From contig CAISTG010000015.1 of assembly GCA_903888345.1 (NCBI GenBank), positions 11,474-75,473 of the forward strand: a stretch of 64,000 nt of DNA. Reading direction: 5' to 3'. Below, one piece after another: positions 5,528 through 36,709 of this stretch. The position numbers and the translations under genes were made by a program. A model generated the notes under the pieces. That model was not told where the DNA came from. It did not search any database and worked only from the letters and a program-made list of their open reading frames with translations. Positions within the stretch are counted from its first letter, which is position 1. The number at the start of each line of letters is the position of its first letter. Source of the stretch: Candidatus Buchananbacteria bacterium (GTDB lineage: Bacteria > Patescibacteriota > Patescibacteriia > 2-01-FULL-39-33).

Positions 5528-5532
5528 AATAA

Positions 5533-5979
5533 TTAATATAATTTGAGAACATTTTTTTTGTTAACGGTGACCAGCATTAGTTTGACTGCGTCAATACTAT
5601 TATCATCGTTCAATTCTCCGACGACTCTAACAGTTGAGCCAATTTTAATGCCATTTTTATTGGGAAGCTTAAGTTGTTTTTTGACGGGAGCCTTAAATCT
5701 AACCAAAAATTTCGTCGAAGTTGTCAAATTAGCTGATCGACTCAACAATTTACTAGTCGGATTATTATCCGCAATCTTTACAACCACATAATTATTGTTG
5801 CTTATTGATTTCACGGTTGCCAGAAAATTTACGGAGTCAGATTTTTTAGCGACGCTAGAAGATTTCGTTGAAGAATTATTAATAACCCTAACTGTCGCAG
5901 TTTTTGCAAAAACAAAAACCGGTAATAACAATAAGTTAATAACCAAAAAAGAAGCAAAGAGAGATTTCGAATTAAGCAT
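5533..5979 (-). CDS. Small secreted protein of unknown function (148 aa)
   Basis: ORF with N-terminal signal peptide MLNSKSLFASFLVINLLLLPVFVFA. Same strand as the flanking surface-protein genes. No recognisable catalytic motif. Confidence 0.45.
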   Translation of the reverse strand: MLNSKSLFASFLVINLLLLPVFVFAKTATVRVINNSSTKSSSVAKKSDSVNFLATVKSISNNNYVVVKIADNNPTSKLLSRSANLTTSTKFLVRFKAPVKKQLKLPNKNGIKIGSTVRVVGELNDDNSIDAVKLMLVTVNKKNVLKLY

Positions 5980-6098
5980 GAGTCAAATTAATTTATAAGT
6001 AGTTAAACAATATTAATTATAATCATTAATTCCATTTTTGTAAATTTAAGCGACCTAAACAGCCCAGTTTTTTTATTTTCAAAATATTTCCCTTTAAT

Positions 6099-9000: not shown

Positions 9001-12000
9001 ATGTCCTGATACTGGCCAATAAGATCAACTGCATTTTGGCCATTACTTATAGTTGAGGTTGCAGCATTAAATATCACCACTCGATGATTACTTGAATCAG
9101 CCACAAATAATTGATTATTAACATTATTATAAACAAGACCCGTCAAAGATTTGAGCCTGTTCTGACTTACTGTCGAAGTTGAGGCGTTAAAATCAGTCTG
9201 CCCCAAGACATTGATGGCGTTTTGTCCATTAACTATAGTTGAAGTAGCAACATTAAATATCATAACCCGACTATTCGACTGATCAGCAACAAATAACCTA
9301 CTCCCAACTGAGTCATACGTGACCCTAAATGGATTATTTAATGTCGTCTGCGTATGCCCGCTGGAACTACCGGAAAAATTAGCTTGCCCCAAGACATAAC
9401 TAGCATTTTCACCGTTAGTGATAGTTGAGGTAGCTGCGTTAAAAACCAATACTCGACGATTCAAGGCATCTGCCACAAATAAGCGATTATTCCCGGCGTC
9501 ATATTGAACACCACGCGGATAATTCATAGTACTTGTGGACGCGCTATAAGTCTTAGTAATGAAACTAGTCTGACCCAAGACATTGATTGCGTTTTGTCCA
9601 TTAGCAATAGTCGAGGTGGCGACATTAAACACCATTACTCGATTATTGGTAACATCAGCTACAAATAATCGGTTATTTGTTAGATCATAAGTTAGTCCGG
9701 CCGGTTGGCTTAATGAGTATTGAGTAGTTGTGGAAATGGCAGCACTAAAATCAGCCTGCCCCAAGACATTAACCGCATTTTCTCCATCAGCTATTACAGC
9801 GGTATCATAAACCAAAACTCGCATATTCACGCTATCTGAAACAAATAAACGATCACCAATAGAATCATACGCTAAGCCATCGACGGTATTAAATTTATTC
9901 TGTGATCTTCCGTTAGTTGAGCTCGAATATTCAGTTTGGCCCAAAATATGATCGGGAACATAATCGGCTAAGGTATTATCACTATTCAGATTATAAATCA
10001 TGATCCTATTATTAGTAACACCCTCAGCTACAAATAATCGATGATGAACAGTGTCCAAGGCTACTTCAACAGGTGAAAATAATCCCAATTTATTTCTCCC
10101 CTGATTATTTACATCGTTTTTATTAAAAGTTACTAGTGCGGGATTAGCGGTCACGTCCTGATATTGGCCGATTACATCGACAGCATCGCTACCATCAATA
10201 ATATAGCTGCGAGAAATGGTCACGGTAACTGCATATACTTGCGTGGTTCCATCAGCCGCCGTAACCATGTAGCTGACCGGATTAGAAAAATTTTGCGCCA
10301 CGCCGGAATTTGGACTAATTGAGGTGCCAAAATAACTAATTGTCGGCACCAGCGCTGTAACATCAGTTCCATAGGGCACGGTTGCGGCGATAGTATGTTG
10401 AGCTTCATCAATTATGGCTGTAACTGACAAACTAGAAAAAGCAAAAGAATCAATTCTTTTTGGCTGGCCGAGCACCTCTACTGCCTGCATCGCCTTTTTG
10501 GCATTAATTCTTGTACCGGCCGAAGTGATTCCATGCAAAGAAACCAAGTCATCACCACTGGTCAAAATAATATTTTTTATTTGGGCTGCCGACAGACTTG
10601 AATTATAGCCTTCCATTAAGGCGGCTAAACCAGCAACATACGGAGTAGCCATTGAGGTCCCGCTCAAATAACCGTAAGGCTCGTTTGAGCCATCAGTAAA
10701 TTTTTTAATACTAATTTGGTCGACATAACAACCGCCATGATTATTATCAGCAGCATTAGTTACCCACCTAAAACGGAATTTAAAATTGTTGGTTAGATAC
10801 TTTTTTGGAATCACGATATTACCAATATATGCAGCCGAACCACCAGCGGAACTATCGTCATTTGTCAGCCAATCCAAAACTGTCTCATCTAATCTGAATT
10901 GCTGATTATAGTAGGGCCAAGTACCTTCAGTAAAATTAACGCCATCGGCGCTATATTCAACAGCCAAATAATCAGCGTTCCAACTATACTCCGTATCACA
11001 AGCAGCAGCGAAACTAATAGTCGCTGATTTTGCATCAGTACCAAAATCATATGTTGCCGAAGTTATGGTCGTGTTAGCGTTAGCGGCGTAAGGATAATTG
11101 GGGCGCGCCACATGCAAAACCTTACCCCAAAAAGCATCGCCAGTATCATAAACTTTCCATTGATTGTTTATTCCTCCCAATACCCAACCATTAGGAAATT
11201 CTGAGGTTGGAGTAGTTTCAAAATTCTCATTAAAAACGGAGGCCTCAGAAATAGTGCTATACACATTAGTTCCCGGGGCCGCCACATCAACTGCGGTGGC
11301 ACTATAATCAGCAAAAGAGGCCAACTGATCGTTTTCATTAGTCGCTGTTACGGCAATAATATTATCTAAATTATAATCAGAGGGATAATTATGAAGCACG
11401 TCATTATTTTGACCATTATTTCCAGCCGCCGCGACAAAAATTCCACCTGCAATAGAAAAACGATTGATAGCATCATATTCTGCCTGTGAATAGCCATCAG
11501 AACCAAAGCTGGCATTAATTATTTTGGCACCATTTTGAATTGCAAAATCAATCGCCTTAATTTCACTAGCTACATCCAATTTAAATCTAATAGTCATGAT
11601 TTTTGCCCCACTCGCCACACCGACGACTCCCTTTGAGTTGTTTTTGGCGGCGGCGATAATTCCAGCCACGTGCGTTGCATGCGACGACATATCTACACTC
11701 AAATCGCTATATGCTTCTGGCATCGGATCTTTATCATTATCAACATAATCATAACCATGGCTGCAGCCACCTAAATAGGCGCCATTTTGATCTTTACAAC
11801 CAGATCCATCCCACATATTAGCGACCAGGTCAGGATGATTATAGGCCACACCATTATCGATGATTGCCACAATAACTGGGGAGATTGTCGCCGCATCAGC
11901 AATCTGCCAAGCTTCGGGCGCATCAATATCAGCATCAACAACGCCGCTGCGCGGATTATTATCCGGAAAATTGCCGCCAACTGTTTGACCAGTGTTATCT

Positions 12001-12539
12001 AAACCCCAAAGCAAGTTTTTATAAGTATCATTAGTATTGATAACTGAAGGTCGACGCTGATAATTGGGCTCAGCATATTCGACATTGGGATCGGCTTGTA
12101 ACTCCGCTATTTTCTGAGCGGTAGTCTTGCCATCCTTAATTTGCAAAAAAGACAGATTACCTTTTTTAGAAAATTCCCTCTTTTCCATCTTTCGGGCAGC
12201 ATTAAAAGTGTTGGCCTGTACTTGTCCGGCGGCGGTCTCTAGATTAATTTTTGATTTTTTGTATTTGATAATAACATCGCCCTCAATATAATCTTTTCCC
12301 GCCATTATACTGGGCCTTGAAGAACTGCTTAAACCGCCAGTAACTAGCCGCGCTGACTTCCCAATGTTCGACTGAACTGTTTTAACTTGATCTATAGCAG
12401 AAAAATCGACGGCATTAATTTTGGCCACGGCGACAGTTTGAGCCTGAATAATTTTAGTTGCCGGGCGATTAGAAAAAAATATGAGTGAAATACAAAAAAG
12501 GGCTAGGATAATTCCTCCACCAGCCAAGAACTTCTTCAT
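6099..12539 (-). CDS. Giant secreted protein (~2147 aa). N-terminal subtilisin-like (S8) serine protease, then multiple NHL repeats (beta-propeller), Ig-like domains, a Gly8 linker and a C-terminal Ca-binding-like module.
   Basis: Catalytic triad motifs VAIIDNGV (Asp), SHATHVAGIIAA (His), GTSMATPYVAGLAAL (Ser). More than 10 NHL-like units (RLFVAD..NNRVMVFNVATST). GGGGGGGG linker. Start chosen at MKKFLAGGG (12539), not the track's upstream 12605. The 12605 start would overlap a rho-independent terminator hairpin at 12608-12635. Confidence 0.8.
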   Translation of the reverse strand: MKKFLAGGGIILALFCISLIFFSNRPATKIIQAQTVAVAKINAVDFSAIDQVKTVQSNIGKSARLVTGGLSSSSRPSIMAGKDYIEGDVIIKYKKSKINLETAAGQVQANTFNAARKMEKREFSKKGNLSFLQIKDGKTTAQKIAELQADPNVEYAEPNYQRRPSVINTNDTYKNLLWGLDNTGQTVGGNFPDNNPRSGVVDADIDAPEAWQIADAATISPVIVAIIDNGVAYNHPDLVANMWDGSGCKDQNGAYLGGCSHGYDYVDNDKDPMPEAYSDLSVDMSSHATHVAGIIAAAKNNSKGVVGVASGAKIMTIRFKLDVASEIKAIDFAIQNGAKIINASFGSDGYSQAEYDAINRFSIAGGIFVAAAGNNGQNNDVLHNYPSDYNLDNIIAVTATNENDQLASFADYSATAVDVAAPGTNVYSTISEASVFNENFETTPTSEFPNGWVLGGINNQWKVYDTGDAFWGKVLHVARPNYPYAANANTTITSATYDFGTDAKSATISFAAACDTEYSWNADYLAVEYSADGVNFTEGTWPYYNQQFRLDETVLDWLTNDDSSAGGSAAYIGNIVIPKKYLTNNFKFRFRWVTNAADNNHGGCYVDQISIKKFTDGSNEPYGYLSGTSMATPYVAGLAALMEGYNSSLSAAQIKNIILTSGDDLVSLHGITSAGTRINAKKAMQAVEVLGQPKRIDSFAFSSLSVTAIIDEAQHTIAATVPYGTDVTALVPTISYFGTSISPNSGVAQNFSNPVSYMVTAADGTTQVYAVTVTISRSYIIDGSDAVDVIGQYQDVTANPALVTFNKNDVNNQGRNKLGLFSPVEVALDTVHHRLFVAEGVTNNRIMIYNLNSDNTLADYVPDHILGQTEYSSSTNGRSQNKFNTVDGLAYDSIGDRLFVSDSVNMRVLVYDTAVIADGENAVNVLGQADFSAAISTTTQYSLSQPAGLTYDLTNNRLFVADVTNNRVMVFNVATSTIANGQNAINVLGQTSFITKTYSASTSTMNYPRGVQYDAGNNRLFVADALNRRVLVFNAATSTITNGENASYVLGQANFSGSSSGHTQTTLNNPFRVTYDSVGSRLFVADQSNSRVMIFNVATSTIVNGQNAINVLGQTDFNASTSTVSQNRLKSLTGLVYNNVNNQLFVADSSNHRVVIFNAATSTISNGQNAVDLIGQYQDIIANPLVPNFNKSNTDNSYNPAINKFGLYTPRYLTIDPVHLRLFVTDNFNNRVLVYNLNADGSMASYTPTHVLGQASFTTTTATVMTQSSLKVPNGLAYDFARNYLFVNDAGNNRIMVFDVAEITNGEPAINVLCQADFVTKVSTSTQDHITNSSGFAYDFVHNRLFVNDYSRILVFDVAEITNGEPAINVLGQTDFTSNATATTQAGFDYILDSVYDWVNERLFVAERNNQRVTVFDVAEITNGEPAINVLGQSGYLTNSSATTNGGFKNISALAYDNISERLFVSEGGNNRVTVFDVAEIVNGELAVSVIGQDNYLTLSSGVSTKLLNSPWGIYYYENGNKLFVADSANNRVMVFAVGQTNIVHPVALSYYPQNNTTSTSISTNLQLRFSQPMAKGSGSIALYKTSNDLPLETIDVNSNQVNCSSTGLVTITPANVLAEQTDYYVKIDATALVGVGFAINNYLGITDATTWKFATSDLSGPTLSNIYPSGVQEYGTSSVNLTVTTNENSTCRYAAVSGTAFGAMTPFAVTGAINHKTPISSLTNGSSYTYYIVCQDLSNNTSTEAVASFSVAAVATDNDGPVISNILPDGEQVAGTVNATLVLDTDEAATCKYSDNFSTLFASMTIFSVTGLRHHTTPISGLSNGNSYVYYVICEDFVNNFSSKSTVSFSIALTVVAPPVSGGGGGGGGFIVPPVVSTTSYSIPTNGVSSIGTIGLLGTNLTASLNSVANFITTVSQSSQRQEHKMTVVNLDVTSQIVTLRVESTPQTIVLKLNEKANIDLDQDGKSDISINFSSLAFNQVSLTVKSLIAVQATIDSNGKNIVIPDKLGRIVKVSTVNRPAVYYVSDGLKYLFVNRNTYTTWANDIGDIGNKFSTLKQISQSEFEAIPLGGNLVARSGNLIKFDDSSIIYGVGAQGRLYKFVDASVQSRLYGKAVPYVVQAGFRNDYYNYGTAVETLTATSVKPE

Positions 12540-12600
12540 AATAAAATTAGAAAATTTAATAGTATACTTCTGTATATTATAGCACAAAAATATTAGCGAA

Positions 12601-12635
12601 ACCAAAAAAGAGAACTGGGGATAACAGCTCTCTTT
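12601..12635 (-). terminator. Rho-independent terminator downstream of the SDR gene
   Basis: Hairpin aagagaactg...cagctctctt (10 bp, 1 mismatch), then a T-run on the minus strand (plus accaaaaaag). Confidence 0.5.
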
Positions 12636-12675: not shown

Positions 12676-13404
12676 CTATTGTGCCGTCCAACCGCCATCA
12701 ACATACAATACTGAGCCGGTGACAAACTTGGCTTCATCAGCAGCCAGATAGACTGCGGCGTAAGCGATATCATTGGGTTCGCCCATATGTCCGAGTGGCG
12801 TGGCCGCATTAATTCCAGCATTAGCCGCTTTATCATTCTTAATCCCCTTGGTCATGCCAGTTTCAATAAAGCCAGGAGCGATCGAATTAACTCTGATACC
12901 GGCCGCCGCCAACTCTAACGCAGCAGTACGAGTTAACTGATTAACTCCCCCTTTAGCCGAACAATAAGCAGCTGCACTCTTAAAGCCAACTTGACCCAAA
13001 ATCGAGGCCATATTAATAATTGAACCTTTGATTTTTTTGTTTTTCATGTAAGTAGCAGCCGCGCGCACGCCATAAAACACACCATTTAAATTAATCGCCA
13101 AAACTTTCTCCCAAACTTTATCCGGCATACCGACAATTTCTCCTGTTAAACCGACGCCGGCATTATTAACCATGATATCCAAACCACCAAATTTCTTCAC
13201 CGCCAAATCCACCAACTTTTTGACATCTTTATCTTTGGAGGTATCCGCTTTTAAAAATACTGCATTAGCCGGCAATTTGCCAGGATAAGCATTAATATCA
13301 GAGAAAACGACTTTCGCTCCCTCAGCGACAAACATTTCAGCTATCGCTTTGCCAATCCCTGACGAAGCGCCAGTGACGACAGCAACTTTGTTTTGTAGTC
13401 TCAT
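12676..13404 (-). CDS. Short-chain dehydrogenase/reductase (SDR), 3-oxoacyl-ACP reductase-like
   Basis: VAVVTGASSGIGKAIA (NAD(P)-binding TGxxxGxG), NNAG, YCSAKGG (catalytic Y-x3-K), 242 aa. Confidence 0.85.
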   Translation of the reverse strand: MRLQNKVAVVTGASSGIGKAIAEMFVAEGAKVVFSDINAYPGKLPANAVFLKADTSKDKDVKKLVDLAVKKFGGLDIMVNNAGVGLTGEIVGMPDKVWEKVLAINLNGVFYGVRAAATYMKNKKIKGSIINMASILGQVGFKSAAAYCSAKGGVNQLTRTAALELAAAGIRVNSIAPGFIETGMTKGIKNDKAANAGINAATPLGHMGEPNDIAYAAVYLAADEAKFVTGSVLYVDGGWTAQ

Positions 13405-13434
13405 ATAATTTGAAATTAATTATTGATATATAAA

Positions 13435-13609
13435 TTAAGCTAGATGCGACCCATCGCAAAAAGACTTATTTTTTGATTTACCACAACGACAAAGATGATA
13501 ATTTTCTTTTTTCGGATACTTCTTTAATATCTCATAAGATTCTGAATCTCCGTTAGCATCGCAAACAATATTTTCTTAGTCTAAAGTAATTTGTCCCGAC
13601 ACTAGGCAT
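13435..13609 (-). pseudogene. CDGSH iron-sulfur domain protein (mitoNEET-like, ~58 aa) with an apparent +1 frameshift at an A-run. Not in the ORF track.
   Basis: Minus-strand frames give MPSVGTNYFRLRK, then after a shift at agaaaat ...IVCDANGDSESYEILKKYPKKENYHLCRCGKSKNKSFCDGSHLA*. The CRCG.S.NK.FCDGSH segment matches the CDGSH signature C-x-C-x2-S-x3-(P/S)-x-C-D-G-S-H. Confidence 0.45.
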
Positions 13610-13711
13610 GGTCCATTCTTGCTGACGCTAATTTTTTTGCCAATTACATTTTTCACAACATTATATATCTAATACCTTAATTATCTCACTTTACTTTCAA
13701 AACCACAACCG

Positions 13712-13745
13712 TATTAAAAAACCGCTACAATTATTGTAACGGTTA
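13712..13745 (-). terminator. Rho-independent terminator for gene 13767-14306
   Basis: aaccgctacaat-t-attgtaacggtt hairpin (12 bp, 1 mismatch), followed on the minus strand by ttttttaat. Confidence 0.5.
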
Positions 13746-13766
13746 AAGTACATGTCATTATTTGCG

Positions 13767-14306
13767 CTATTCCCATTGGCGCTGTCGTCGTTCGCGCGCT
13801 TCTCTGATCACCAATTTAACATCCTGATGCCAAACTGCTGGATCGATTTGTAGACTATTGTTTAGATCCAACAAAATCAGCGCCGGATGCAACATATTCA
13901 TTTCAGATAACAGGCCATAACGATTGGCCCGCTCATCCTCTTCGTACCACTCACGTAAATGAACCAGTAGGATTGCCGCTAAAATCTCGTTGTCTAAGTA
14001 TTCTATCGCCCCGGCAAATGGCAGCAATAGCTGTTTTGGGAGCAATTCCTTTTTCCAGTAACAAATCCGTTCGTGGACTGAGGCTAGAAATAATGTTTCA
14101 TACTGCTCAAATTCATCGACAGTAATTTCCGGCGCTGGCAGCAGATCAAGCACGCATTTAAGTAAGACGTTACGATAACTGCGCCCCAAGGAAACTCCAG
14201 CTGGATCATGACTGCGAATAATCAGTGACAGCAAGACCCAACCAGTCTCGTAATCTGTTAAATCAGAAAAATCTGGCGGATCATCCTCAGGTTCAATAAT
14301 TCCCAT
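13767..14306 (-). CDS. Hypothetical protein (179 aa), acidic. Lies in a visibly GC-richer segment.
   Basis: Clean ORF with no recognisable motif. Its nucleotide composition is noticeably GC-richer than the flanking genes. Confidence 0.45.
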   Translation of the reverse strand: MGIIEPEDDPPDFSDLTDYETGWVLLSLIIRSHDPAGVSLGRSYRNVLLKCVLDLLPAPEITVDEFEQYETLFLASVHERICYWKKELLPKQLLLPFAGAIEYLDNEILAAILLVHLREWYEEDERANRYGLLSEMNMLHPALILLDLNNSLQIDPAVWHQDVKLVIREARERRQRQWE

Positions 14307-14331
14307 CAGATTGACTCCTCAAGTTGGAAAG

Positions 14332-14592
14332 TTAAACAATTTGAATCTTGAAACGACTATCTTCGATGTGACTAACCATTCCTTCGACTGAATCGAAAGC
14401 TAGTGCTTGTGGCTGAAACCCGAAATGTTTTTCATCTTGCATTTCGAAATCGAAATATTCCCGATTTTCTGCTGTCGAACGGACCGTTTTGCAAATACCT
14501 TCATACGGCTTTAAACCGGGACGAGTATAGGTAATCCGAATTCTTTTGCCAGCAAATATACCGAGTAATTGCGCCAATGTAACTTGAGACAT
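14332..14592 (-). CDS. Hypothetical small protein (86 aa)
   Basis: ORF co-oriented with and 25 bp upstream of 13767-14306. No motif. Confidence 0.4.
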   Translation of the reverse strand: MSQVTLAQLLGIFAGKRIRITYTRPGLKPYEGICKTVRSTAENREYFDFEMQDEKHFGFQPQALAFDSVEGMVSHIEDSRFKIQIV

Positions 14593-14750
14593 ACGCCGGT
14601 CTCCTTTTGGTTTAATTAATTAATAATCATAAGTGCAATTCAGAAAATAACTTACCAAAATTGACGCTTTTTGTCAATCAATTTATCTTTACCAAGAATT
14701 GTCGTTTGACGCTGAAAACCGAACTAATTTAAAAAGACATGATATAACTA

Positions 14751-15446
14751 TCATGTCTTCAGTTTTAAGAAAATGTTCGATATTACCTGATCAATAACCA
14801 GTCTCCCAAAATCAATTCCCACTGGTTGGTGTCGAATTTGCTGGCTAACCCAAATTGAGTCGCCAGATCCGATTGCTTCAATATATGTCTTAGCGGCGGC
14901 ATAACTATCAATGCGCTTTTTGATCTCCGCCAGCGTTTGAGGGTCACCACTATCTAAAGCATTTTTGGTGCGGAGATTCTGTTGCAAATCAACAGCATCC
15001 GCCCACAACATCAACCGTAACTGCGGATAAATGCCAGCCGTCAATCGCTCACTTAATAGCCAAGACTGCGTTTGCATAATTACTTCCGGATCATCACGAT
15101 CAATGACGAAAGCCAGTGCCCTGATTTCTGATGAATCAAGCACTACCACTTGGCCCGCCATTAAAGCCGGCAGTACCACCGTTAGGTAATTCGCACGCAT
15201 AGCCCGTAAATAATACTTATTATGCGCCAAAGTACCCGGAACCAAGCCCTGGCTAGCAACTAACTCTTGGCCAATTTGATTGGCTGCCGGACTACTTTCA
15301 AAGTATGACGGCTTAATTATTAGGCCGCCACGATCAGGCCAGAGAGCATTAAGACGAGTACTCAAAAGACTAGTAATACTGCTTTTCCCGCTACCGTCAG
15401 GCCCATCAACACTAATTAAAATTCCGGGAAACTGCGTTTGACTCAT
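14751..15446 (-). CDS. P-loop nucleoside/nucleotide kinase, thymidylate-kinase-like (231 aa)
   Basis: ILISVDGPDGSGKSSITSLL Walker-A in Tmk/dNK-like context. Strong SD aggagg 5 nt upstream of the ATG. Confidence 0.6.
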   Translation of the reverse strand: MSQTQFPGILISVDGPDGSGKSSITSLLSTRLNALWPDRGGLIIKPSYFESSPAANQIGQELVASQGLVPGTLAHNKYYLRAMRANYLTVVLPALMAGQVVVLDSSEIRALAFVIDRDDPEVIMQTQSWLLSERLTAGIYPQLRLMLWADAVDLQQNLRTKNALDSGDPQTLAEIKKRIDSYAAAKTYIEAIGSGDSIWVSQQIRHQPVGIDFGRLVIDQVISNIFLKLKT

Positions 15447-15490
15447 TCTATTCCTCCTTTTTTGAGTTCAGCTAGAAGTAGTTGTCTGAC

Positions 15491-15518
15491 TTGAAAATTT
15501 AATGTAATGTGCTACAAT
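15491..15518 (+). promoter_or_regulatory. Sigma70-type promoter for the CYTH gene
   Basis: TTGAAA (15491-15496), 16-nt spacer, TGcTACAAT extended -10 (15510-15518). Confidence 0.45.
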
Positions 15519-15542
15519 TATTTATATTAATACAATAATTTT

Positions 15543-16079
15543 ATGGCTAAAAACAATCAGGAAATTGAAGTAAAGGCTACTTTCCAAGATCAACAGGCGG
15601 TATTAAATATCCTCCAGCCTCAATTAACCTTCGTCAATCGAGTTTCAATCAACGACACTTATTTTAGTTCAGGGGCCAGCATGAGCAACACTAATAATCT
15701 TGTCAGAATTCGAGAAATCAATAACGACAAAGTGGAGCTTACATTCAAAGGAAAAACAGTTGACACTAATAATATTTGGCAAAGAACGGAGATTACTACT
15801 TTAGTTGATTCCGCCACTAATGCCAAAGCTATCCTAGCGAATTTGGGGCTCAAAGTCGTATCCGAATATCAAAACGCGAAAGAATATTACGACTATAATG
15901 GACTGGAAATTGTCTTCGCTAGATTTACTTTGCCAGCTACATTAGAATTTATGGAAATTGAAGGCGACACGACTACCGCTGTGGCCGAAGTTATTGAAAA
16001 ATTAGGCCAAACAATTACCGTCGTCGGTGAAGAAATTTTTGACGTCTTTGATCGTGCCAGAAATAATACTGCTAACTAA
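15543..16079 (+). CDS. CYTH-domain protein (CyaB/ThTPase-like triphosphate tunnel metalloenzyme), 178 aa
   Basis: N-terminal EIEVKATF (the EXEXK CYTH signature). Downstream LVRIREINNDKVELTFKGK and WQRTEITTL basic/acidic tunnel residues. Its 3' end overlaps the convergent gene by 8 nt. Confidence 0.55.
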   Translation: MAKNNQEIEVKATFQDQQAVLNILQPQLTFVNRVSINDTYFSSGASMSNTNNLVRIREINNDKVELTFKGKTVDTNNIWQRTEITTLVDSATNAKAILANLGLKVVSEYQNAKEYYDYNGLEIVFARFTLPATLEFMEIEGDTTTAVAEVIEKLGQTITVVGEEIFDVFDRARNNTAN

Positions 16080-17262
16080 TTTTTAAGTATTTTTTTAGAG
16101 CCACTAAAGATAAGCCGAAAAACGTTTCTGGCTTATTTTTTATTTGCTCTGTTAGTTTAGCCACATCTATCCAGTGCGGATTGCGATTCTCTTCAATATT
16201 TTCTTTCGGCTCACCCTCTAAATAGCGGCTAACGAAAACTAAAGCAACATAGGAACGATCACCACTCAATTGTTGTAGACAAATATACGGCTGATAGGCT
16301 TCGATAATTTGGCCGTTAGATTCGGGTTGCGAGGCCAGAAATGACGGCATAATTTCACTTAGAACTGATGTTTCTTCGAGTGTTTCCCGTACAGCTGCAA
16401 TCTGAGCCGATTCAAATCGCTTAATTAAACCAGAAGGCAATTCAAATTTGCCGGAATTCGCCGGATCGATGTTTGGCTTATGCCGCGTTTGTAATAATAT
16501 TTCTGTTTGACCGTTATTATTTCTTTCAACGATATTTACCACCACTGGAATACCAATTGATAAATCATCATAATTAATATATTTATTGTGCAGCGGCGCA
16601 AAGTAATTGCTCTTTTCTAAAAAATTATATAATATCGGACAGCTGTGGCTAATTTCTTCTTTTAAGTTTATCAAATCAATCGGCAGATTAAGATCATTTT
16701 TTAAATTCAAATTATAAATAGAATGGCCTTGGCAATTCTTGCTTAAATCATTAAAAGAATTAGAAGTGCTCCAACGCACACCAGAAAAAATATTCGTGTT
16801 TCCCTGATCCTTAAGTCCCATTAAGTAGACACCGCCATTAACTTCGGGGCCAAAAACGTAATCATTATTATCTAACCTAGCAAACCCCGTAATTAAATCT
16901 TCTTGTTTAATAAAGGGAATATCCATGGGGATCAAGATGGCTTTACTATAGCCATGAACATTGGTCAAAGTCTTAAAAATTATATTTAACTTGTCGCTCA
17001 AGCTTGGCGCGGCGTCAATCGTGAAGCCATTAATTGAATAATTTTCCTGGAACCAACGCAAATCAGCCAAGCTATCGGTCGCGACTACTAAATCAAAGTA
17101 ATCGGAATTATTGATTTTATTTAATAAATCAATAAAACAACATTTTGCTAATTCAAACGCAAAATCCTCCGAAGTCTCTTCGGCGATCCTGGTTTTAACC
17201 TTTCCTTTAACTGGGCGCTTAGCAAAGACCACTACAACATTATCATGTTTTTTATTCAACAT
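16072..17262 (-). CDS. Fusion protein: N-terminal DUF2064 (GT-A/nucleotidyltransferase-like) and C-terminal Nudix hydrolase domain (396 aa)
   Basis: VVVFAKRPVKGKVKTRIAEE matches the DUF2064 N-terminus (ivvfaKaPvpGrVKTRL). C-terminal Nudix box GKFELPSGLIKRFESAQIAAVRETLEETSV (GX5EX7REUXEEXGU). Confidence 0.6.
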   Translation of the reverse strand: MLNKKHDNVVVVFAKRPVKGKVKTRIAEETSEDFAFELAKCCFIDLLNKINNSDYFDLVVATDSLADLRWFQENYSINGFTIDAAPSLSDKLNIIFKTLTNVHGYSKAILIPMDIPFIKQEDLITGFARLDNNDYVFGPEVNGGVYLMGLKDQGNTNIFSGVRWSTSNSFNDLSKNCQGHSIYNLNLKNDLNLPIDLINLKEEISHSCPILYNFLEKSNYFAPLHNKYINYDDLSIGIPVVVNIVERNNNGQTEILLQTRHKPNIDPANSGKFELPSGLIKRFESAQIAAVRETLEETSVLSEIMPSFLASQPESNGQIIEAYQPYICLQQLSGDRSYVALVFVSRYLEGEPKENIEENRNPHWIDVAKLTEQIKNKPETFFGLSLVALKKYLKIS

Positions 17263-17266
17263 AGAT

Positions 17267-18262
17267 TTACTGATTAGTATTCCAAATTTTCTTATCTTGG
17301 CCAGGACAACTCTTCAAAAATTCTCGGGATTTAATAATGGCAGTCAAAATCTGTTCTTGATCATGACTAACTAAATACTCCCTTAAAGGAATGATTTGAT
17401 TATCCATGTGGCAGGGCTTGATATTTAAATCAGAATTAATAAATATTTCATTCGAAAGATAACAATCTCGACAAACCTCCGGGTCGCCACAACCAATTTC
17501 AATTGCCACGCCCCAAGTATTTTTATAAGTGAGCTTATTTAATGGCAAATAGCCACACTGTCCCCTGAAGCTATCGTCTTGTTGTGCCATCCTGACGCAA
17601 CCCAAGGCAACTAAACGCTCCAGCAGCTCAGGCAAAGGTAAATTCCAGCCCAGTTGTTCCGCCGTAATCGGTTCAAAATTCAAAAATTTAAATTTAAAAC
17701 CATAATGATCGCATAGATTTAAAAACTCTAAAATATTCTCGGCGTCATCGTTTTTTCCTTTAACGACAACATATTTTAATTCGACTATTGGACGATTTGG
17801 TAGCTGTGATAGATATTCCAAATTGTTTAATAAATGATCGAATTGACCGCTTGTTCCACCGGTCATTTTCTGCCAAGTGGCATAATTAGAGCCATGGATC
17901 GAAACAGCGATTTTATGGCAAACTGATGCCAGTTTATCCATTATAGCGGGTGTCAAACTTACTCCGTTGGAATGGAAAAATAATTCTTTGAACGGTTTTA
18001 ATTTAATATATTCCAGCAAATCCATTATCTTGGGATAGAGGCTCGGCTCACCGCCGGTCAAAGATAGTTTCTTTAAACCGGACCGATGTAAGACGTCAAT
18101 CAAATATATGAGCTCAGAATATTCTGCATGCGCAATATTTTTCTGGCAGATTGGCATACCCTCGTTTGAACAAAAAAAGCACTTAAGATTGCAATAATCA
18201 GTTAGAGCAACACGTAAAGGAAAATTGCCAAGAATTTCCGATTGTTTTTGTTCCAGTGACAT
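17267..18262 (-). CDS. Radical SAM enzyme, MoaA-like paralog A (331 aa), with a C-terminal auxiliary-cluster Cys motif
   Basis: LTDYCNLKCFFCSNEG (CxxxCxxC), LSLTGGEPSLYP, KFLNFEP (cf. MoaA FIEFMP), C-terminal VCRDC-x16-C (MoaA-like C-x2-C-x13+-C). Confidence 0.75.
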   Translation of the reverse strand: MSLEQKQSEILGNFPLRVALTDYCNLKCFFCSNEGMPICQKNIAHAEYSELIYLIDVLHRSGLKKLSLTGGEPSLYPKIMDLLEYIKLKPFKELFFHSNGVSLTPAIMDKLASVCHKIAVSIHGSNYATWQKMTGGTSGQFDHLLNNLEYLSQLPNRPIVELKYVVVKGKNDDAENILEFLNLCDHYGFKFKFLNFEPITAEQLGWNLPLPELLERLVALGCVRMAQQDDSFRGQCGYLPLNKLTYKNTWGVAIEIGCGDPEVCRDCYLSNEIFINSDLNIKPCHMDNQIIPLREYLVSHDQEQILTAIIKSREFLKSCPGQDKKIWNTNQ

Positions 18263-18266
18263 ATGT

Positions 18267-19454
18267 TTAGCAGTATTTAAATTTTTCTTCTTTGTTCCAG
18301 CCCGCGCAATTCATGCCCGGAGCGAGCATTAAATATTCACGAGACAAACGGAAGAGGTCAAATAATTCTTCGTAGTTTTCGGTTTCGATAGCGTGAGTCA
18401 AATCAATTTTAGTATCAAGTACCGCACATGGTTTAATATATAGCCCCTGACCATCATTAGTCGGTTTGATAAACATACACAAGAAATTATAGCAAGACAA
18501 GCAGGCGGCCTTTTGACCGCAGCCAAAAATACTATGTAAGCCGCCAACATTTTTGTAAGTGAAATTCGTGCCCGGGATATAAGTATCGGGATCGTTATGT
18601 CGAGGCGCATCAGCTGGAAAAACACAACCCAGCTTTTCTAATTTTTCAAAAAACTCTTTACGGCCAACAGTATATTTTTTTTGCTCAGGAAATTGCGGTT
18701 CGAACTCCAAAAATTTTGGATGAAAACTATTAGCAGCACAATAATCTAGTAATCGCTGCAACTCTTCTTCACTATCATTGATGCCCCGCATAATAACACT
18801 CTTAATAAAAACTTTATCGCCGATCTGTTGTTTAGTTAAATATTCTAAATTTTCCTGAAGTTTTTTATATTTTCCCACTTGAATCTCTTCCTTAAAATAA
18901 TTATTTAAATTAGAAATTTTATTCCAAGTTGGAAAGAAAAAGGAATTTACCGAAACCCCGATGCGCGAAAATGAATCTTTGAGCCGATCAATAATAGTTG
19001 GGGTCAAAGCAATACCATTACTATGAATGGAAAAACGAATTTGCGGATACTTTTTTGTCCAGTCAATCAATTTAAAATCACCGCTAGTAAAGTCTGGATG
19101 AATTGTTGGCTCGCCACCACTAAAATCAATCATTTTTAGAGTTGTTGATTTAATCAACATATCACCTAATTTCATCACCAAATCGATATTGGCATGACCA
19201 TTAAACTTATCCGCATAACTAGATCCTTCATTAGAACAAAAAACACACCAAGAATTACACTTTGGTGTGAGAGAAATACGCAAACGTATTTTAGCAAACA
19301 AATCAAGCATTTCTTCCCGGCTAAGGTGTTTTTGACCCTTGGCCGCCAATGAATCTTTACTGAGATCTAATACCCTACCATTCTGATCTTTTCTGACGGT
19401 AACTTCCTCTTCCTTAAATTCCTTAGCCAAAGAGACGCTTGTTTGATCTGACAT
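18267..19454 (-). CDS. Radical SAM enzyme, MoaA-like paralog B (395 aa), with a C-terminal Cys-rich auxiliary motif
   Basis: LTPKCNSWCVFCSNEG (CxxxCxxC), FSGGEPTIHP, KFLEFEP, FGCGQKAACLSCYNFLC...IKPC. Clearly paralogous to 17267-18262 (HSNGIALTPTIIDRL vs HSNGVSLTPAIMDKL). Confidence 0.75.
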   Translation of the reverse strand: MSDQTSVSLAKEFKEEEVTVRKDQNGRVLDLSKDSLAAKGQKHLSREEMLDLFAKIRLRISLTPKCNSWCVFCSNEGSSYADKFNGHANIDLVMKLGDMLIKSTTLKMIDFSGGEPTIHPDFTSGDFKLIDWTKKYPQIRFSIHSNGIALTPTIIDRLKDSFSRIGVSVNSFFFPTWNKISNLNNYFKEEIQVGKYKKLQENLEYLTKQQIGDKVFIKSVIMRGINDSEEELQRLLDYCAANSFHPKFLEFEPQFPEQKKYTVGRKEFFEKLEKLGCVFPADAPRHNDPDTYIPGTNFTYKNVGGLHSIFGCGQKAACLSCYNFLCMFIKPTNDGQGLYIKPCAVLDTKIDLTHAIETENYEELFDLFRLSREYLMLAPGMNCAGWNKEEKFKYC

Positions 19455-19477
19455 ATTGTTTTTTAATAATTCTATTG

Positions 19478-19506
19478 ATTATACCCCTCATTTCAATATT
19501 TGTCAA
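19478..19506 (-). promoter_or_regulatory. Consensus sigma70 promoter driving the rSAM-B / rSAM-A / DUF2064-Nudix operon
   Basis: Minus strand reads TTGACA, 17 nt, TATAAT. -35 is plus tgtcaa 19501-19506; -10 is plus attata 19478-19483. About 25 nt upstream of ATG 19454. Confidence 0.6.
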
Positions 19507-19552
19507 TAGCGGCAGAATAAACATATTTTTATGGCCCAATAAATAGCTAATA

Positions 19553-21355
19553 TTAGCTTAAATATAAATGTTGACGACCCAAAACATAGAGACTGTTCAT
19601 GGCGCGAGTTAAGGCAATATAAAGTAAATCTTTCTTGATGTGGGACACCTCGGCATGCAATTCTACCGGTAAACCATTAACTGACAGTAATTCCCCGTCA
19701 ACTCCGACCAAAAACACGGCATCAAATTCCACGCCCTGGGAGTCAATCAGTGACATCACTTTAACATTACTATATTGGCTGAATTGTTGCTGATAAGTTT
19801 TTAATAATTCCTCATTATGCGACAAGATACCCACACTCACCTCTTTCAGCTCCATTAATTTTTCGGTTACATATTCCAATTCTTCTGCTGGCGTTAAAAT
19901 CAATTCTTCTACTCGAGGCCCCGACTTAATCATTTCCGGCACCACCACGTCAAAGCCCAATTCTTTGAGATAAGTTAAAATTTCTTTGGTATTACGATAG
20001 ACCTTGGATAGCTGAACCAGACGCTCGGCTGGCAACTCGCCGCCAATGCCCGATAAATTATTAACCGTGCCTAATCTGACGCGTTGATTAAAGTCACCAA
20101 TATAGACCATCTCACCTATTTTCGCGTTAACCGCTTGGCTAAAGATTGCTAAATGCTCTGGCAAATAATTCTGAAACTCGTCAATAATCATCAATTTGTA
20201 ATCCGCTTTAAACTTACCCTTTTTCCGCTTCAATTCTTTAGTCTTGCCGACCAGCGAATAATAATCTTTTTCAATCTGAAAACCATTATCAATGCCAGCA
20301 ATCGCGCGCAACAAAACTGCTAAGTCCAAACGATCGAGCTGTTTATTATTCTTTTGCACCATCAACCTGGCGTGTCCAGCTTGATCCAAATAGTCACCAT
20401 ACACTGCCTGAAGCAACTTAAACCAATCAGTTTGCCACTCTAATGACTGCTGCGCGCGTAAACCCTGCACTTTCGCCCAGACATAACTAGCTTCGGCATC
20501 AGTTTCATGTTCGGTAATCGTCCAATCAACTAACGGCAGAATATTTTTTGCCCAAGCCGCTAAAGTCGTAATTTCCACGTCCCTAATACCTAACTCTGGC
20601 AACAAATGCGAGAAATAATCTCTGGTACTTTCATCTTGCACGAAAACAATCACTTCGCCATCGCTTACTTGATCCGCAGTTTCTGGTGATTGCAAGAGAT
20701 AAGCAACTCGATGCAAGGCTAGAGTCGTTTTGCCAGAACCAGCTGGACCAGTAACCACTAGCTTACCGCCAAAGCTGGAGCGAATTACCTGGTCTTGCGC
20801 CTTTTCCATTTGCGCCACAATTTCTGGCAGCACAAAGGCAGTCTTACGTGAAGAAAAATATTCTTGATAAATTAATTCGCGCGCAGCAATCTGACTTTCG
20901 GTCGATAAAAATAAGATCTTACCATCATTAATTAAATACTGATCTTTTTTAATTATTTCTCCGCCCTGCTCTCCGCCATGACTGCGGACCATAAAGGCGC
21001 CTGGAACCTCAAACCTAATTTGAGAAATCGGTGACGCCCAAGAATAGATATTTTCTTGATCAAAAGCAAATTTCGAAAAATACAATTCACGAAAATCTTT
21101 TTCGCCGTCGAATTTAATTAAGCAAGAATTAAAATACGGCGATGGATGTAGATGCTGCAAATCATTATAACGCTTGCGATAAGTCGCGATCATGGTTTGA
21201 TAGCTCAGCTTGTCCGCATCGGACTCTTGCGATAAATGCTTCAACGTTAAAATCTCCTCCGGAATACGCTGGAGTTCAGAAACGATCACTTCCCGCTTGT
21301 GTTCCAGTGTCGCCTTAACTTGCTCTAAATACTGGTCTTTTTGGTCTGCTGTCAT
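19553..21355 (-). CDS. UvrD/HelD-like superfamily-1 DNA helicase (helicase IV-like), 600 aa
   Basis: VVTGPAGSGKTTLALHRVAYLL (Walker A with the HelD-style AxHR), IIDEFQNY (DEXQ), YIGDFNQRV, N-terminal coiled-coil-like domain. Confidence 0.7.
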   Translation of the reverse strand: MTADQKDQYLEQVKATLEHKREVIVSELQRIPEEILTLKHLSQESDADKLSYQTMIATYRKRYNDLQHLHPSPYFNSCLIKFDGEKDFRELYFSKFAFDQENIYSWASPISQIRFEVPGAFMVRSHGGEQGGEIIKKDQYLINDGKILFLSTESQIAARELIYQEYFSSRKTAFVLPEIVAQMEKAQDQVIRSSFGGKLVVTGPAGSGKTTLALHRVAYLLQSPETADQVSDGEVIVFVQDESTRDYFSHLLPELGIRDVEITTLAAWAKNILPLVDWTITEHETDAEASYVWAKVQGLRAQQSLEWQTDWFKLLQAVYGDYLDQAGHARLMVQKNNKQLDRLDLAVLLRAIAGIDNGFQIEKDYYSLVGKTKELKRKKGKFKADYKLMIIDEFQNYLPEHLAIFSQAVNAKIGEMVYIGDFNQRVRLGTVNNLSGIGGELPAERLVQLSKVYRNTKEILTYLKELGFDVVVPEMIKSGPRVEELILTPAEELEYVTEKLMELKEVSVGILSHNEELLKTYQQQFSQYSNVKVMSLIDSQGVEFDAVFLVGVDGELLSVNGLPVELHAEVSHIKKDLLYIALTRAMNSLYVLGRQHLYLS

Positions 21356-21370
21356 ATGACTATAGTTAAA

Positions 21371-21400
21371 AAAACCGCCCCATCGGTTATTGGGCGGTTT
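21371..21400 (-). terminator. Rho-independent terminator for the lipoprotein gene 21624-23015
   Basis: ccgcccca...tgggcgg hairpin, followed on the minus strand by ttttttt. A second weaker hairpin at 21586-21612 sits immediately after the stop. Confidence 0.45.
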
Positions 21401-21623
21401 CTGAGTTATTAGATCTAGTGAAGAGAATCGAGTCCCTAAATTGTGGCTGTAGTTTCAGCATATGAAGTCTATTATACTACAATCATAAATATATTGCAAG
21501 CTATATTTAAATATTTGTCTAAATTACAATATAATTTCACTTTTTTGCCAGTAACAATAGCTTAAAAACGATAACGATTATATAAAAGCAGAGGCATCCG
21601 GCCCCTGCTTTTATATTTACGAC

Positions 21624-23015
21624 TTATTTCGCCTTATTCTGATATTCGTAAGACTTCTTCATTGCTTTCCAGAAAACCTCCCGATTAACGCAATGTGGAT
21701 TGGTGCCATCACAATCTTTGTTTTCTAAAACGTTGCCATATTTCGCATAAGGATTACCATCTTCATACTCATAGGCGTTAGCTGACATCTTCTTGATGAC
21801 CTCGGCGTGAGCCTTGTCGACGTCACCGCCAAATTTCCCTAATTCTTCTGCCATGCCCAAGTCATAAGCACGCGCTAGTCCCCGAAACTCCATTGACTTG
21901 GCTTCGGCTTTAACTGTATCCAGCGCCTCCTCTATCGGCTTGGTCGCCCAACCAACCGTCTTACCGGTAATCTCGCCAAAGACTCCTTCAATAATTTTAT
22001 CTTTTACTTCGTCTTTAATTTTATCGCCCATGGCATCATTAATCATTTTCATATTACGATTAAAATCCTCTTGCAATTCCGTTAGTCCACCATCAATCGC
22101 TTTTTGCCTTTCGAGCATGCGTTCATAAAAACGCAACTGCTCATCCCATTTTTGTTCCGACTCAGTCGGTTTGGTTTTCCAGATTTTTAAAACATCAACC
22201 GCATTACCAACTTTTTCGTTCCAACGATCTTTAACAATCGACTTGTCATCCATCTCCTCAATATCATTTTTGGGATCATTAATGTAGGCCAAATAATCTC
22301 GAATGGAGTTGTACTGCTCCATCGTCATTTTTGTTCCATTGTCTTTGAGTTTTTGATTAAACTCTAACAGCTTGGTTTTTAAGCCTGAATCAATATCTCC
22401 CACGGCGAAGTCGCCAATAATTTCTTGACTGATCGGATCCGATAATTTTTCGTATTCTTTTTTGTTATCAGCAGTTAAGACCGTCAACATGTCTGCACGC
22501 TTGGTTTCTAGCCCCGCTAATTGCTTTTTTAGATCTGAGTCATCGCCATTTTTTAGATATTCTTTAAGCTCTTCGATTTGTTTGTCCACTTCTACCACTT
22601 TGGTAGCATCAATTGATTTGCCAAGTTGACTACGACATTCTGCGGCCGAAGAACCAAATAATAATTTGCAGCCCGAAGGATTTTCATTCTTTATGGCCGC
22701 ATTCAAAATACATTCATCTTGTGTGTAAGAAAACAATCCTCCCTTAATCTGTTTGCAAGCCTCAAAATTACCAGTATTTTCCGCAATCATCAGATAACAT
22801 TTATCGCGCGGCGGATTAGACCCACCATCTTTGAACTTATCGCCTTTAATCTTGTCACATTGCGAAGTGTCACCTTCTTGCGCCCCCGCACCTTGGAAAC
22901 AATGATCACTGTCAGGCATAACATCACAAACCACCGTCATCCAATCACCTACACAGCCACTTAATAATAGTGGCGCCACCAACAAAAAGGCCATTAATAG
23001 ATATTTTGATTTCAT
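21624..23015 (-). CDS. Secreted lipoprotein, Cys-rich N-terminal region plus coiled-coil (463 aa), unknown function
   Basis: MKSKYLLMAFLLVAPLLLSGC lipobox. Many Cys in the first 120 aa. Lys/Glu-rich predicted helical remainder. Confidence 0.5.
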   Translation of the reverse strand: MKSKYLLMAFLLVAPLLLSGCVGDWMTVVCDVMPDSDHCFQGAGAQEGDTSQCDKIKGDKFKDGGSNPPRDKCYLMIAENTGNFEACKQIKGGLFSYTQDECILNAAIKNENPSGCKLLFGSSAAECRSQLGKSIDATKVVEVDKQIEELKEYLKNGDDSDLKKQLAGLETKRADMLTVLTADNKKEYEKLSDPISQEIIGDFAVGDIDSGLKTKLLEFNQKLKDNGTKMTMEQYNSIRDYLAYINDPKNDIEEMDDKSIVKDRWNEKVGNAVDVLKIWKTKPTESEQKWDEQLRFYERMLERQKAIDGGLTELQEDFNRNMKMINDAMGDKIKDEVKDKIIEGVFGEITGKTVGWATKPIEEALDTVKAEAKSMEFRGLARAYDLGMAEELGKFGGDVDKAHAEVIKKMSANAYEYEDGNPYAKYGNVLENKDCDGTNPHCVNREVFWKAMKKSYEYQNKAK

Positions 23016-34641: not shown

Positions 34642-34644
34642 AAA

Positions 34645-36708: not shown

Positions 36709-36709
36709 C

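Follow-up and report, generated by a model that had tools for sequence, protein, structure and literature searches.

The closest described relatives of the system reported here are MoaA, the GTP 3′,8-cyclase of the molybdenum cofactor (Moco) pathway, the prokaryotic viperins (pVips), nucleotidyltransferases of the CofC, MobA and NadM-Nudix types and the biosynthetic clusters for nucleoside analogues. As reported in PNAS, Arg266 of MoaA drives the coordination of GTP to the auxiliary cluster, and Arg268 and the Gly-Gly (GG) tail are required for radical initiation (PMC12625886). The tubercidin pathway contains a radical S-adenosylmethionine (rSAM) enzyme together with a tailoring Nudix hydrolase (PMC6112128). 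We analyzed one stretch of 64,000 nucleotides (referred to as the window) from a Candidatus Buchananbacteria bacterium (assembly GCA_903888345.1, contig CAISTG010000015.1, positions 11,474–75,473). The window carries two rSAM genes (rSAM_A and rSAM_B), one gene encoding a DUF2064 domain fused to a Nudix hydrolase, one CYTH triphosphate-tunnel metalloenzyme gene and one P-loop kinase gene. A first-pass annotation, which was made from the letters of the window, had proposed these genes as a candidate nucleotide-modification system. Here, we compared the gene group with its relatives in other genomes and with the systems mentioned above.

Related loci were collected from one scan of one genome per species (12 loci in 185,579 species) and one metagenome scan (53 loci); hidden Markov models (HMMs) were built for the components, and clustering at 95% rSAM_B identity gave 53 non-redundant loci. 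The DUF2064 gene comes next after rSAM_B in 43 of the 44 loci whose contig extends past rSAM_B. The CYTH gene was found in 36 of 43 loci; in four of the seven loci without it, the contig ends early. A P-loop kinase is present in 35 of the 43 loci, either of the window type (KINB, 20 loci) or of a second type (KINA, 15 loci), and the two types are unrelated to each other (hhalign probability of 3.6%). The Nudix domain, fused or adjacent, is present in 31 of the 43 loci, and a GreA-like gene (∼160 residues, PF01272) in 28. Five more loci (L006, 12452–13228; L007, 12543–13355; L026, L027 and L030) have no P-loop kinase and encode, in the kinase slot, one ∼250-residue protein of no known family. 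This protein contains the TIAGRLIY...GNNRE...VIDVDWPDQY motifs and has no Pfam or PDB match; an ATP-grasp reading of it was an impression only and was set aside as unsupported.

Across the loci, the CYTH gene lies on either strand but is always adjacent to the other genes. Because the CYTH gene changes strand while adjacency is kept, and because the kinase is exchanged for non-orthologous proteins, selection appears to act on the functions of the genes; these observations showed that the cassette is conserved and under selection. The invariant core comprises rSAM_B, DUF2064, the kinase and CYTH, whereas rSAM_A, Nudix and the GreA-like protein often accompany it. rSAM_B is the universal rSAM component. 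One minimal form, with one rSAM_B-like enzyme, DUF2064, KINA and CYTH, was found in six loci (L015 and L067–L071); most versions, including that of the window, contain the second paralog rSAM_A and a Nudix domain fused to DUF2064. Conservation across the family extends to the cluster motifs of the rSAM proteins, the invariant positions of DUF2064 and, in most members, the Nudix box. The neighborhood, whose conservation in relatives the first-pass annotation had made decisive for its proposal, is thus strongly conserved over the 53 loci. Its remark that this exact gene combination had not been described agrees with our full-text literature searches, in which no published description of the gene set, and nothing on DUF2064, was found. 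The system appears to be undescribed, and its parts belong to known superfamilies.

Both rSAM proteins match the Radical_SAM family PF04055 (63 and 78 bits for the pair), and their AlphaFold2 models are confident, with predicted local distance difference test (pLDDT) scores of 91.9 for rSAM_A and 91.0 for rSAM_B. By profile comparison the two are paralogs (hhalign probability of 100%, E-value of 3.4e-73, 33% identity over 327 columns). The mean column identity is 59% in the rSAM_A family alignment and 52% in that of rSAM_B. The pair contains CxxxCxxC, GGEP, FLEFEP/FLNFEP and C-terminal CxxC...C motifs. In rSAM_A, C66-x3-C70-x2-C73 is followed by SNEG, residues C312, C318, C321, C326 and C343 are invariant, and the N-terminus carries one conserved extension of ∼55 residues. 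In rSAM_B, R17 is followed by C24-x3-C28-x2-C31 and SNEG, and the invariant C-terminal residues are C258, C264, C267 and C284. MoaA (TIGR02666) is the top NCBIfam match for both proteins, with 106.5 bits for rSAM_B and 69.2 bits for rSAM_A; both are below the cutoff of 284 bits, and no NCBIfam model reached its cutoff for rSAM_A, rSAM_B, the fusion protein or the kinase. MoaA is also the top structural match for both; in the sequence-profile ranking of relatives, it comes first for rSAM_B and second for rSAM_A.

MoaA is represented in the PDB by 1TV7, 1TV8 and 2FB3. The sequences of Staphylococcus aureus MoaA and its R17A/R266A/R268A mutant, taken from the PDB alignment, were aligned to both rSAM families. 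The two families are collinear with MoaA over the whole length, although the identity is 17–20% only. Besides the N-terminal CX3CX2C and GGEP motifs, they share the three auxiliary-cluster cysteines and one invariant equivalent of MoaA Arg17 (R59 in rSAM_A and R17 in rSAM_B). Basic residues are also present at or near the positions that we take to be the MoaA triphosphate contacts Lys163 and Arg192. Different from MoaA, the position of Arg266 is occupied by C326 in rSAM_A and E272 in rSAM_B, and that of Arg268 by F328 and F274, respectively; the consensus of this segment is CYxFLCMFVKP in rSAM_A and CYxSNEIFITP in rSAM_B, neither of which contains a conserved Arg. The terminal GG (Gly339 and Gly340 of MoaA) is absent from both family alignments; rSAM_A ends with ...GWNKEEKFKYC and rSAM_B with ...KIWNTNQ. 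Both families have one extra invariant Cys just upstream of the auxiliary-cluster cysteines (C312 in rSAM_A and C258 in rSAM_B), and C326 is a further one in rSAM_A. Most cassettes also differ from MoaA in carrying a paralogous rSAM pair.

Taken together, the rSAM pair has the fold of MoaA, its N-terminal CX3CX2C motif and its three C-terminal cysteines for the auxiliary [4Fe-4S] cluster, whereas the score expected of TIGR02666 members, the complete set of three GTP-site arginines, the GG motif and, in the ORFs and annotated loci scanned, the association with Moco genes are all missing. Since the pair is MoaA-like in fold but has no Arg266, Arg268 or GG, we conclude from these alignments that rSAM_A and rSAM_B are MoaA-fold ‘twitch’ rSAM enzymes and not GTP 3′,8-cyclases. 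The statement of the first-pass annotation that their motifs track MoaA was borne out for the motifs, fold and cluster architecture but not for the GTP-specific Arg266, Arg268 and GG tail. The likeness to MoaA is one of fold and cluster architecture only and gives no warrant for GTP as the substrate.

The same data bear on whether the pair consists of true MoaA enzymes of the Moco pathway or of maturases for ribosomally synthesized and post-translationally modified peptides (RiPPs), either of which we regard as hardly credible. MoaA is the best match by NCBIfam and structure, and the RiPP maturases SuiB, SkfB and CteB rank shortly after it among the matches. However, besides the low TIGR02666 scores and the missing active-site residues, no MoaC, MoaB, MoaD, MoaE, MogA or MoeA domain was found in a scan of window open reading frames (ORFs) of at least 100 residues, a limit above the size of MoaD; the scan took in all the long non-overlapping ORFs but for one of 2168 residues (6099–12605). 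Nine related loci with Pfam annotation contain no Moco genes, including MoaC and the later ones. Within this scope, the earlier view that the genes do not form a molybdopterin pathway holds. The RiPP reading meets similar difficulties: neither protein has a SPASM domain (PF13186, TIGR04085) or an RRE domain, the intergenic gaps are 4 nt in length, and no free-standing small ORF is conserved across loci L001–L022 and the window region, where all the conserved small ORFs lie inside large genes. Together with MoaA as the top structural match, these results speak against SPASM-type maturases with a nearby precursor peptide, the outcome that would have overturned the first proposal.

Like pVip systems, the cassette pairs rSAM enzymes with one kinase of the nucleoside monophosphate (NMP) kinase type, its patchy spread fits horizontal transfer, and its rSAM proteins give weak pVip and viperin matches. 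However, each rSAM protein scores ∼48 bits against the pVip model NF038283, for which the family cutoff is 180 bits, and the cutoff of TIGR04278 (450 bits) was not reached either; identity with viperin or pVip was rejected. To our knowledge, viperins have no auxiliary cluster, whereas the cassette rSAMs possess the cysteines for it, and we know of no pVip system that includes DUF2064, CYTH, Nudix or GreA-like proteins. PADLOC holds viperin models that are defined, according to the model names, by kinase association; the pVip models of PADLOC gave 52–63 bits only, over the rSAM core, and assignment to a known defence system was rejected too. The nucleoside-analogue clusters, represented by tubercidin, AbmM and BlsE, resemble the cassette in that rSAM chemistry acts on a nucleotide scaffold alongside kinases and a tailoring Nudix hydrolase, and AbmM and BlsE appear among both the structural and the sequence matches of the pair. 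However, their hosts are actinomycetes, whereas the cassette hosts are members of the candidate phyla radiation (CPR) and DPANN with tiny genomes, and they have no counterpart of CYTH or the GreA-like protein. No homolog of deazapurine enzymes was found in the cassette.

The fusion protein consists of one DUF2064 part (residues ∼1–225) and one Nudix part (residues ∼235–396). The DUF2064 part scores 53.1 bits against PF09837 (cutoff 25.8), and K15, K23, R25, PMD114, GPExNGG and W164-S165 are invariant. The match to the CofC family PF01983 is marginal (23.7 bits, cutoff 22), and the protein fails both TIGR03552 (CofC; 23.4 bits, cutoff 105) and its top NCBIfam match TIGR04282, an ‘arsenosugar glycosyltransferase’ model (94.2 bits, cutoff 134). 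Judged by these scores, the N-terminal domain is a DUF2064 member and neither a CofC nor an arsenosugar-cluster protein. DUF2064 is of GT-A fold and, through the wider GT-A group, shares its fold with the CofC and MobA nucleotidyltransferases; the CofC-model scores are weak. The only solved relative of DUF2064 is 3CGX (E-value of 5e-9), deposited as ‘putative nucleotide-diphospho-sugar transferase’, and we know of no DUF2064 member with a demonstrated activity.

The Nudix part scores 45.7 bits against PF00293 (cutoff 21.1). Its Nudix box, G-LIKRF-E-SAQIAAV-RETLEETSV, differs from the GX5EX7REUXEEXGU consensus only by the substitution of the final Gly by Ser; the box is kept in most family members and is degenerate in two (P0269 and P0272). 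There is precedent for fusing a nucleotidyltransferase to Nudix in the NCBIfam families named ‘bifunctional nicotinamide-nucleotide adenylyltransferase/Nudix’; the nucleotidyltransferase fold of NadM differs from that of DUF2064. The CYTH protein exceeds the cutoffs of both PF01928 (54.3 bits, cutoff 23.2) and TIGR00318, the ‘class IV adenylate cyclase’ model (61.6 bits, cutoff 57.95), and its N-terminal ExExK motif is intact (E7-I-E9-V-K11). Thus, Pfam and NCBIfam confirmed all four of the proposed Radical_SAM, DUF2064, NUDIX and CYTH domains. The kinase, which had been called thymidylate-kinase-like, has an intact P-loop (GPDGSGKS) and general similarity to NMP kinases, but it does not reach the dTMP kinase cutoffs; its Tmk/Cmk matches are 17–24 bits (TIGR00041, 24.1 bits, cutoff 83.25; PF02223, 17 bits, cutoff 27). 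We classify it as a P-loop kinase of the NMP-kinase type, its kinship to Tmk and Cmk being sub-threshold only.

The GreA-like protein (L001, 11420–11938; L018, 11068–11664; L076, 5931–6431; and 25 further loci) can be aligned with GreA over its whole length, and its acidic tip, G-x-D-x-W-H-D-E/N, is conserved. This frequent partner points weakly to RNA polymerase as a target or as a protected enzyme. Two observations weigh against the link. The gene is also present in loci labelled archaeal (Woesearchaeota and Pacearchaeota), and Gre factors are not known to serve the RNA polymerase of archaea. In addition, HMM search of the whole window found no GreA-like gene; the window and its 91% identical relatives L020 and L021 form one lineage that is among the few two-rSAM forms without the gene. 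The one-rSAM core form usually lacks it as well.

The gene immediately upstream of rSAM_A in the window encodes a HelD-like helicase, which scores 122.8 bits against NF041464 (cutoff 419). The first-pass annotation had considered it a possible member of the system. No HelD-like homolog is adjacent to the cassette in L001–L012. Only the 91% identical relative has one beside it, and there two separate assemblies show the gene broken into ORFs of 274 and 326 residues (L020, 2014–3815); the linkage is thus not conserved, and the gene falls outside the conserved set. The helicase may be decaying or may exist in a two-gene form. In two archaeal loci (L076, 6415–7335, and a JGI locus, 5420–6334), one 304–306-residue protein with a faint AbrB/MazE-type domain, possibly a local regulator, is encoded immediately upstream of the genes for the kinase and rSAM_A.

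Among 5.8 billion proteins, rSAM_A has ∼110 homolog clusters (48–91% identity), which are labelled Falkowbacteria, Patescibacteria, Pacearchaeota, DPANN and ‘Promethearchaeota’; rSAM_B has 123 clusters, and the fusion protein has 58, on contigs equal in size to the rSAM ones. An exact look-up retrieved recorded entries for rSAM_B (P0111) and the fusion protein (P0229) but none for rSAM_A. Among 1.84 billion representatives, only 27 proteins match the rSAM_B profile at E ≤ 1e-30, and the scores drop from >300 bits to a bulk at 100–130 bits, which we read as MoaA-like proteins. By these profile scores, the rSAM family of the cassette is small and isolated. Ranked by identity to the window protein (49–67%), bacterial and archaeal labels interleave; for example, Woesearchaeota reach 61% and one Saccharibacteria locus 51%. 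This interleaving indicates transfer between the domains, and the cassette would be a horizontally mobile one, found, by source-record labels, mostly in the ultra-small CPR/Patescibacteria bacteria and DPANN archaea. Some labels are doubtful because of low GC content: it is 28–36% in the three ‘Gammaproteobacteria’ loci, and 28–37% in L005, L006, L012 and L010, which come from co-assembly bins labelled ‘Gammaproteobacteria’ or ‘Methanosarcinales’. No viral copy was found; IMG/VR contains no relatives, and the phage collection gave only matches of 22–23% identity in Listeria phage records. Two further groups were noticed around the rSAM family. One sister family (P0110) adjoins unrecognised genes and a RuBisCO/IF-2B salvage pair. 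Six proteins of 895–1444 residues (P0296, P0299–P0301, P0304 and P0305) contain three or four stretches each that match the rSAM_B profile; they would be multi-rSAM fusions.

The surroundings of the cassette vary between loci. In L018, from CPR, it directly follows the genes for dCMP deaminase, dUTPase, ThyA and DHFR (4087–6922), and a genuine thymidylate kinase gene comes after it (12989–13723). In L022 it adjoins NifU and cysteine desulfurase, in L077 it lies between RNase HII and ribosomal protein genes, and in L015 and L019 it adjoins restriction-modification or nuclease genes. The dCMP deaminase gene is also near the one-rSAM form of L015; such neighbors may hint at pyrimidine deoxynucleotide metabolism, or may be there by chance.

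In the window, rSAM_A, rSAM_B and the fusion gene form one three-gene operon with gaps of 4 nt between its members, and the CYTH gene converges on it with an overlap of 8 nt (16072–16079). ORF calling and motif scanning recovered all five genes, the convergent overlap and the consensus promoter at the positions first assigned to them (Table 1).

Table 1. Genes and promoter-like sites of the cassette region in the window
Feature	Position	Strand	Size	Basis or remark
P-loop kinase (KINB family)	14751–15446	−	231 aa	ORF calling
Promoter-like TTGAAA-16-TACAAT, extended TG	15491–15518	+		10/12 match; in the 96-nt divergent kinase/CYTH spacer
CYTH triphosphate-tunnel metalloenzyme	15543–16079	+	178 aa	PF01928, TIGR00318
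DUF2064::Nudix fusion	16072–17262	−	396 aa	PF09837 + PF00293
rSAM_B	17267–18262	−	331 aa	Radical_SAM PF04055
rSAM_A	18267–19454	−	395 aa	Radical_SAM PF04055
Promoter-like TTGACA-17-TATAAT	19478–19506	−		12/12 match; 23 nt 5′ of the rSAM_A ATG
HelD-like	19553–21355	−	600 aa	ORF calling; NF041464 below cutoff

The TTGACA-17-TATAAT site is the sole perfect promoter match in 13400–21700; in a stretch of this size (8.3 kb), we estimate that ∼0.003–0.01 such matches are expected by chance. Weaker promoter-like sites are frequent (38 observed, 24.7 ± 4.4 in shuffled sequences). Judged by its motif, the perfect site is likely the promoter of the operon. The TTGAAA-16-TACAAT site is a weak candidate for the CYTH promoter, as 10/12 matches are common by chance. 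The GC content of the operon (16072–19454) is 0.3665, compared with a window mean of 0.4107, which places it in the lowest 1.3% of sliding windows; that of the neighboring kinase gene (0.4555) exceeds the mean. An Rfam scan of 13000–22000 gave nothing above chance, and no element was found in the short operon leader. Two small ORFs beyond the kinase, hyp86 (14332–14592) and hyp179 (13767–14306), have no family matches and were rejected as hidden components of the cassette; they are not conserved beyond the closest relative, where hyp179 is missing too. The 179-residue ORF lies between the cassette and an SDR gene and is missing from the otherwise syntenic L020 and L021; it probably reflects either a recent insertion or spurious ORF calling.

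On balance, we consider it somewhat probable that the cassette phosphorylates a nucleotide, modifies it by radical chemistry and then processes its phosphate end, with an accessory effector of viperin-like logic as the best guess for its role. The kinase would phosphorylate one NMP-like precursor. The two rSAM enzymes, possibly as a heterodimer, would hold the nucleotide partly via its phosphates; this is suggested by the invariant equivalent of MoaA Arg17 and by the basic residues near the presumed triphosphate contacts. The 5′-deoxyadenosyl radicals might then rearrange or cross-link the ribose or base, in a reaction which, because of the missing Arg266, Arg268 and GG tail, would be unlike the GTP 3′,8-cyclisation of MoaA; the auxiliary cluster is probably completed by the fourth conserved Cys. 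DUF2064 may transfer a nucleotidyl group onto the phosphorylated product or take one off it, and Nudix and CYTH may trim, cyclise or recycle the di- or triphosphate ends, which would yield a modified nucleotide or dinucleotide. Our best guess is that the product serves as an antiviral or anti-competitor nucleotide analogue, or as a signal. Because the cassette is rare, patchy and mobile and frequently has the GreA-like partner, we weakly favor such an effector or signal over a housekeeping cofactor.

Several points weigh against this proposal. The choice of a nucleotide, namely a nucleoside triphosphate (NTP), as the substrate is inferred from the functions of the neighboring genes and from one conserved Arg, whereas the other GTP-site arginines of MoaA are not conserved. 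In view of its sub-cutoff top match, DUF2064, a family in which no member has been characterised, could be a glycosyltransferase. The defence role lacks direct support, as the PADLOC matches are weak and viral copies were not found. Finally, the housekeeping and nucleotide-metabolism genes around the cassette in L018, L022 and L077, as well as the GreA-like copies in archaeal-labelled loci, weaken the effector view. We also considered a more specific version, in which a two-enzyme rSAM reaction that has no characterised counterpart makes one new NTP-derived small molecule; RNA polymerase would be its target, or its user, via the dedicated GreA-like secondary-channel factor, the whole being a module exchanged between CPR and DPANN; as it stands, this version is speculative and quite unlikely.

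An alternative that we hold possible, but unlikely, is a cofactor or primary-metabolite pathway that builds or salvages one nucleotide-linked cofactor. Here, the kinase would produce X-phosphate, DUF2064 would convert it to a nucleoside diphosphate (NDP)-linked form, NDP-X, the rSAM enzymes would assemble or alter X, and leftover phosphates would be stripped by Nudix and CYTH. Comparable logic is known from CofC in F420, MobA in molybdopterin guanine dinucleotide and CobY in cobamide synthesis. The matches of DUF2064 to CofC models, the housekeeping neighbors in the three loci named above and the high conservation of both rSAM families all agree with it. However, a cofactor pathway fits poorly with the very rare and patchy occurrence in the two surveys, and no dependent enzyme travels with the cassette. 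Moreover, the cassette seems to move between bacteria and archaea, and cofactor synthesis offers no obvious place for the GreA-like partner.

Another alternative is one RNA 5′-end or transcription-coupled system, in which CYTH would act as an RNA triphosphatase, DUF2064 as a capping-type nucleotidyltransferase and Nudix in decapping. The kinase would be a polynucleotide kinase, the rSAM enzymes would modify the cap or the initiating nucleotide, and the GreA-like protein (the HelD-like one in the window) would couple the system to RNA polymerase. The CYTH and Nudix families do include RNA triphosphatases and decapping enzymes, the GreA-like protein, present in 28 of the 43 loci, has the full-length alignment and conserved acidic tip, and the window, without the GreA-like gene, has a helicase of the RNA-polymerase-binding HelD type immediately upstream. 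However, Pfam and NCBIfam scans found no RNA-binding domain in any cassette component, and CYTH fits the small-molecule CyaB-type model rather than an RNA triphosphatase model. As the HelD-like gene is not conserved with the cassette and the one-rSAM form usually has no GreA-like gene, we regard this system as improbable. A further possibility is the tailoring of NDP-sugars or glycans, with DUF2064 as a GT-A sugar-nucleotide transferase, the rSAM enzymes modifying the NDP-sugar, for which DesII, BlsE and AbmM are the model, and Nudix hydrolyzing it. The names of 3CGX and of the top NCBIfam match of the fusion protein would suit this scheme. We consider it still less probable, since the genes conserved with the cassette include none for sugar-1-phosphate, epimerase, dehydratase or polysaccharide functions, and glycan synthesis would not account for CYTH, the NMP-kinase-type kinase or the GreA-like protein.

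Apart from the cassette, some other regions of the window were noted. One second cluster of similar make-up lies ∼15 kb from the cassette, at 33889–38308 on the minus strand. It encodes one 343-residue rSAM protein (63 bits against the MoaA model and 41 bits against pVip), one 186-residue P-loop kinase with weak dNK/Tmk and PADLOC VakA matches, one 313-residue protein weakly like HprK-related kinase B, one Bac_transf sugar-phosphate transferase, one 136-residue Nudix protein and one 250-residue rSAM protein with a SPASM domain. At 50063–51928 on the plus strand, four ORFs of 123–158 residues stand in tandem; all of them start with GTG, and none has a Pfam match. The second is a paralog of the fourth (29% identity, E-value of 2e-10), and both have the N-terminus MRPxRKEADM. 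Three giant predicted surface proteins of 1344, 2168 and 1601 residues are encoded within 1493–12605 and 25152–29957. The 1344-residue protein has GLUG, InlB B-repeat and PG-binding domains, the 2168-residue protein (the ORF at 6099–12605 mentioned above) looks like a protease of the subtilisin type that carries NHL-like repeats, and the 1601-residue protein has HYR and Big domains. The window also encodes a TrwB/TraG-type coupling protein (53560–55623), RpoD, DnaG and Tgt. The last three, together with the giant surface proteins, point to a bacterium, probably of the CPR.

CPR and DPANN organisms have tiny genomes and few biosynthetic pathways, and yet they keep, at 50–67% identity, a cassette of five to six genes that includes two Fe-S radical enzymes and has apparently been exchanged between the two domains, so it must give them real benefit. 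With two MoaA-fold rSAM families of different active site, the cassette probably carries out new nucleotide chemistry, and with it the uncharacterised DUF2064 gains a strong functional context for the first time; its one-rSAM minimal form is a directly testable four-gene system. If the RNA-polymerase version were true, the product would exert control like that of alarmones or of DksA-ppGpp, or would be a chain-terminator that comes with a built-in rescue factor. More generally, the product could be an antiviral, an anti-competitor analogue or a signal in lineages whose defence and signalling are poorly known.

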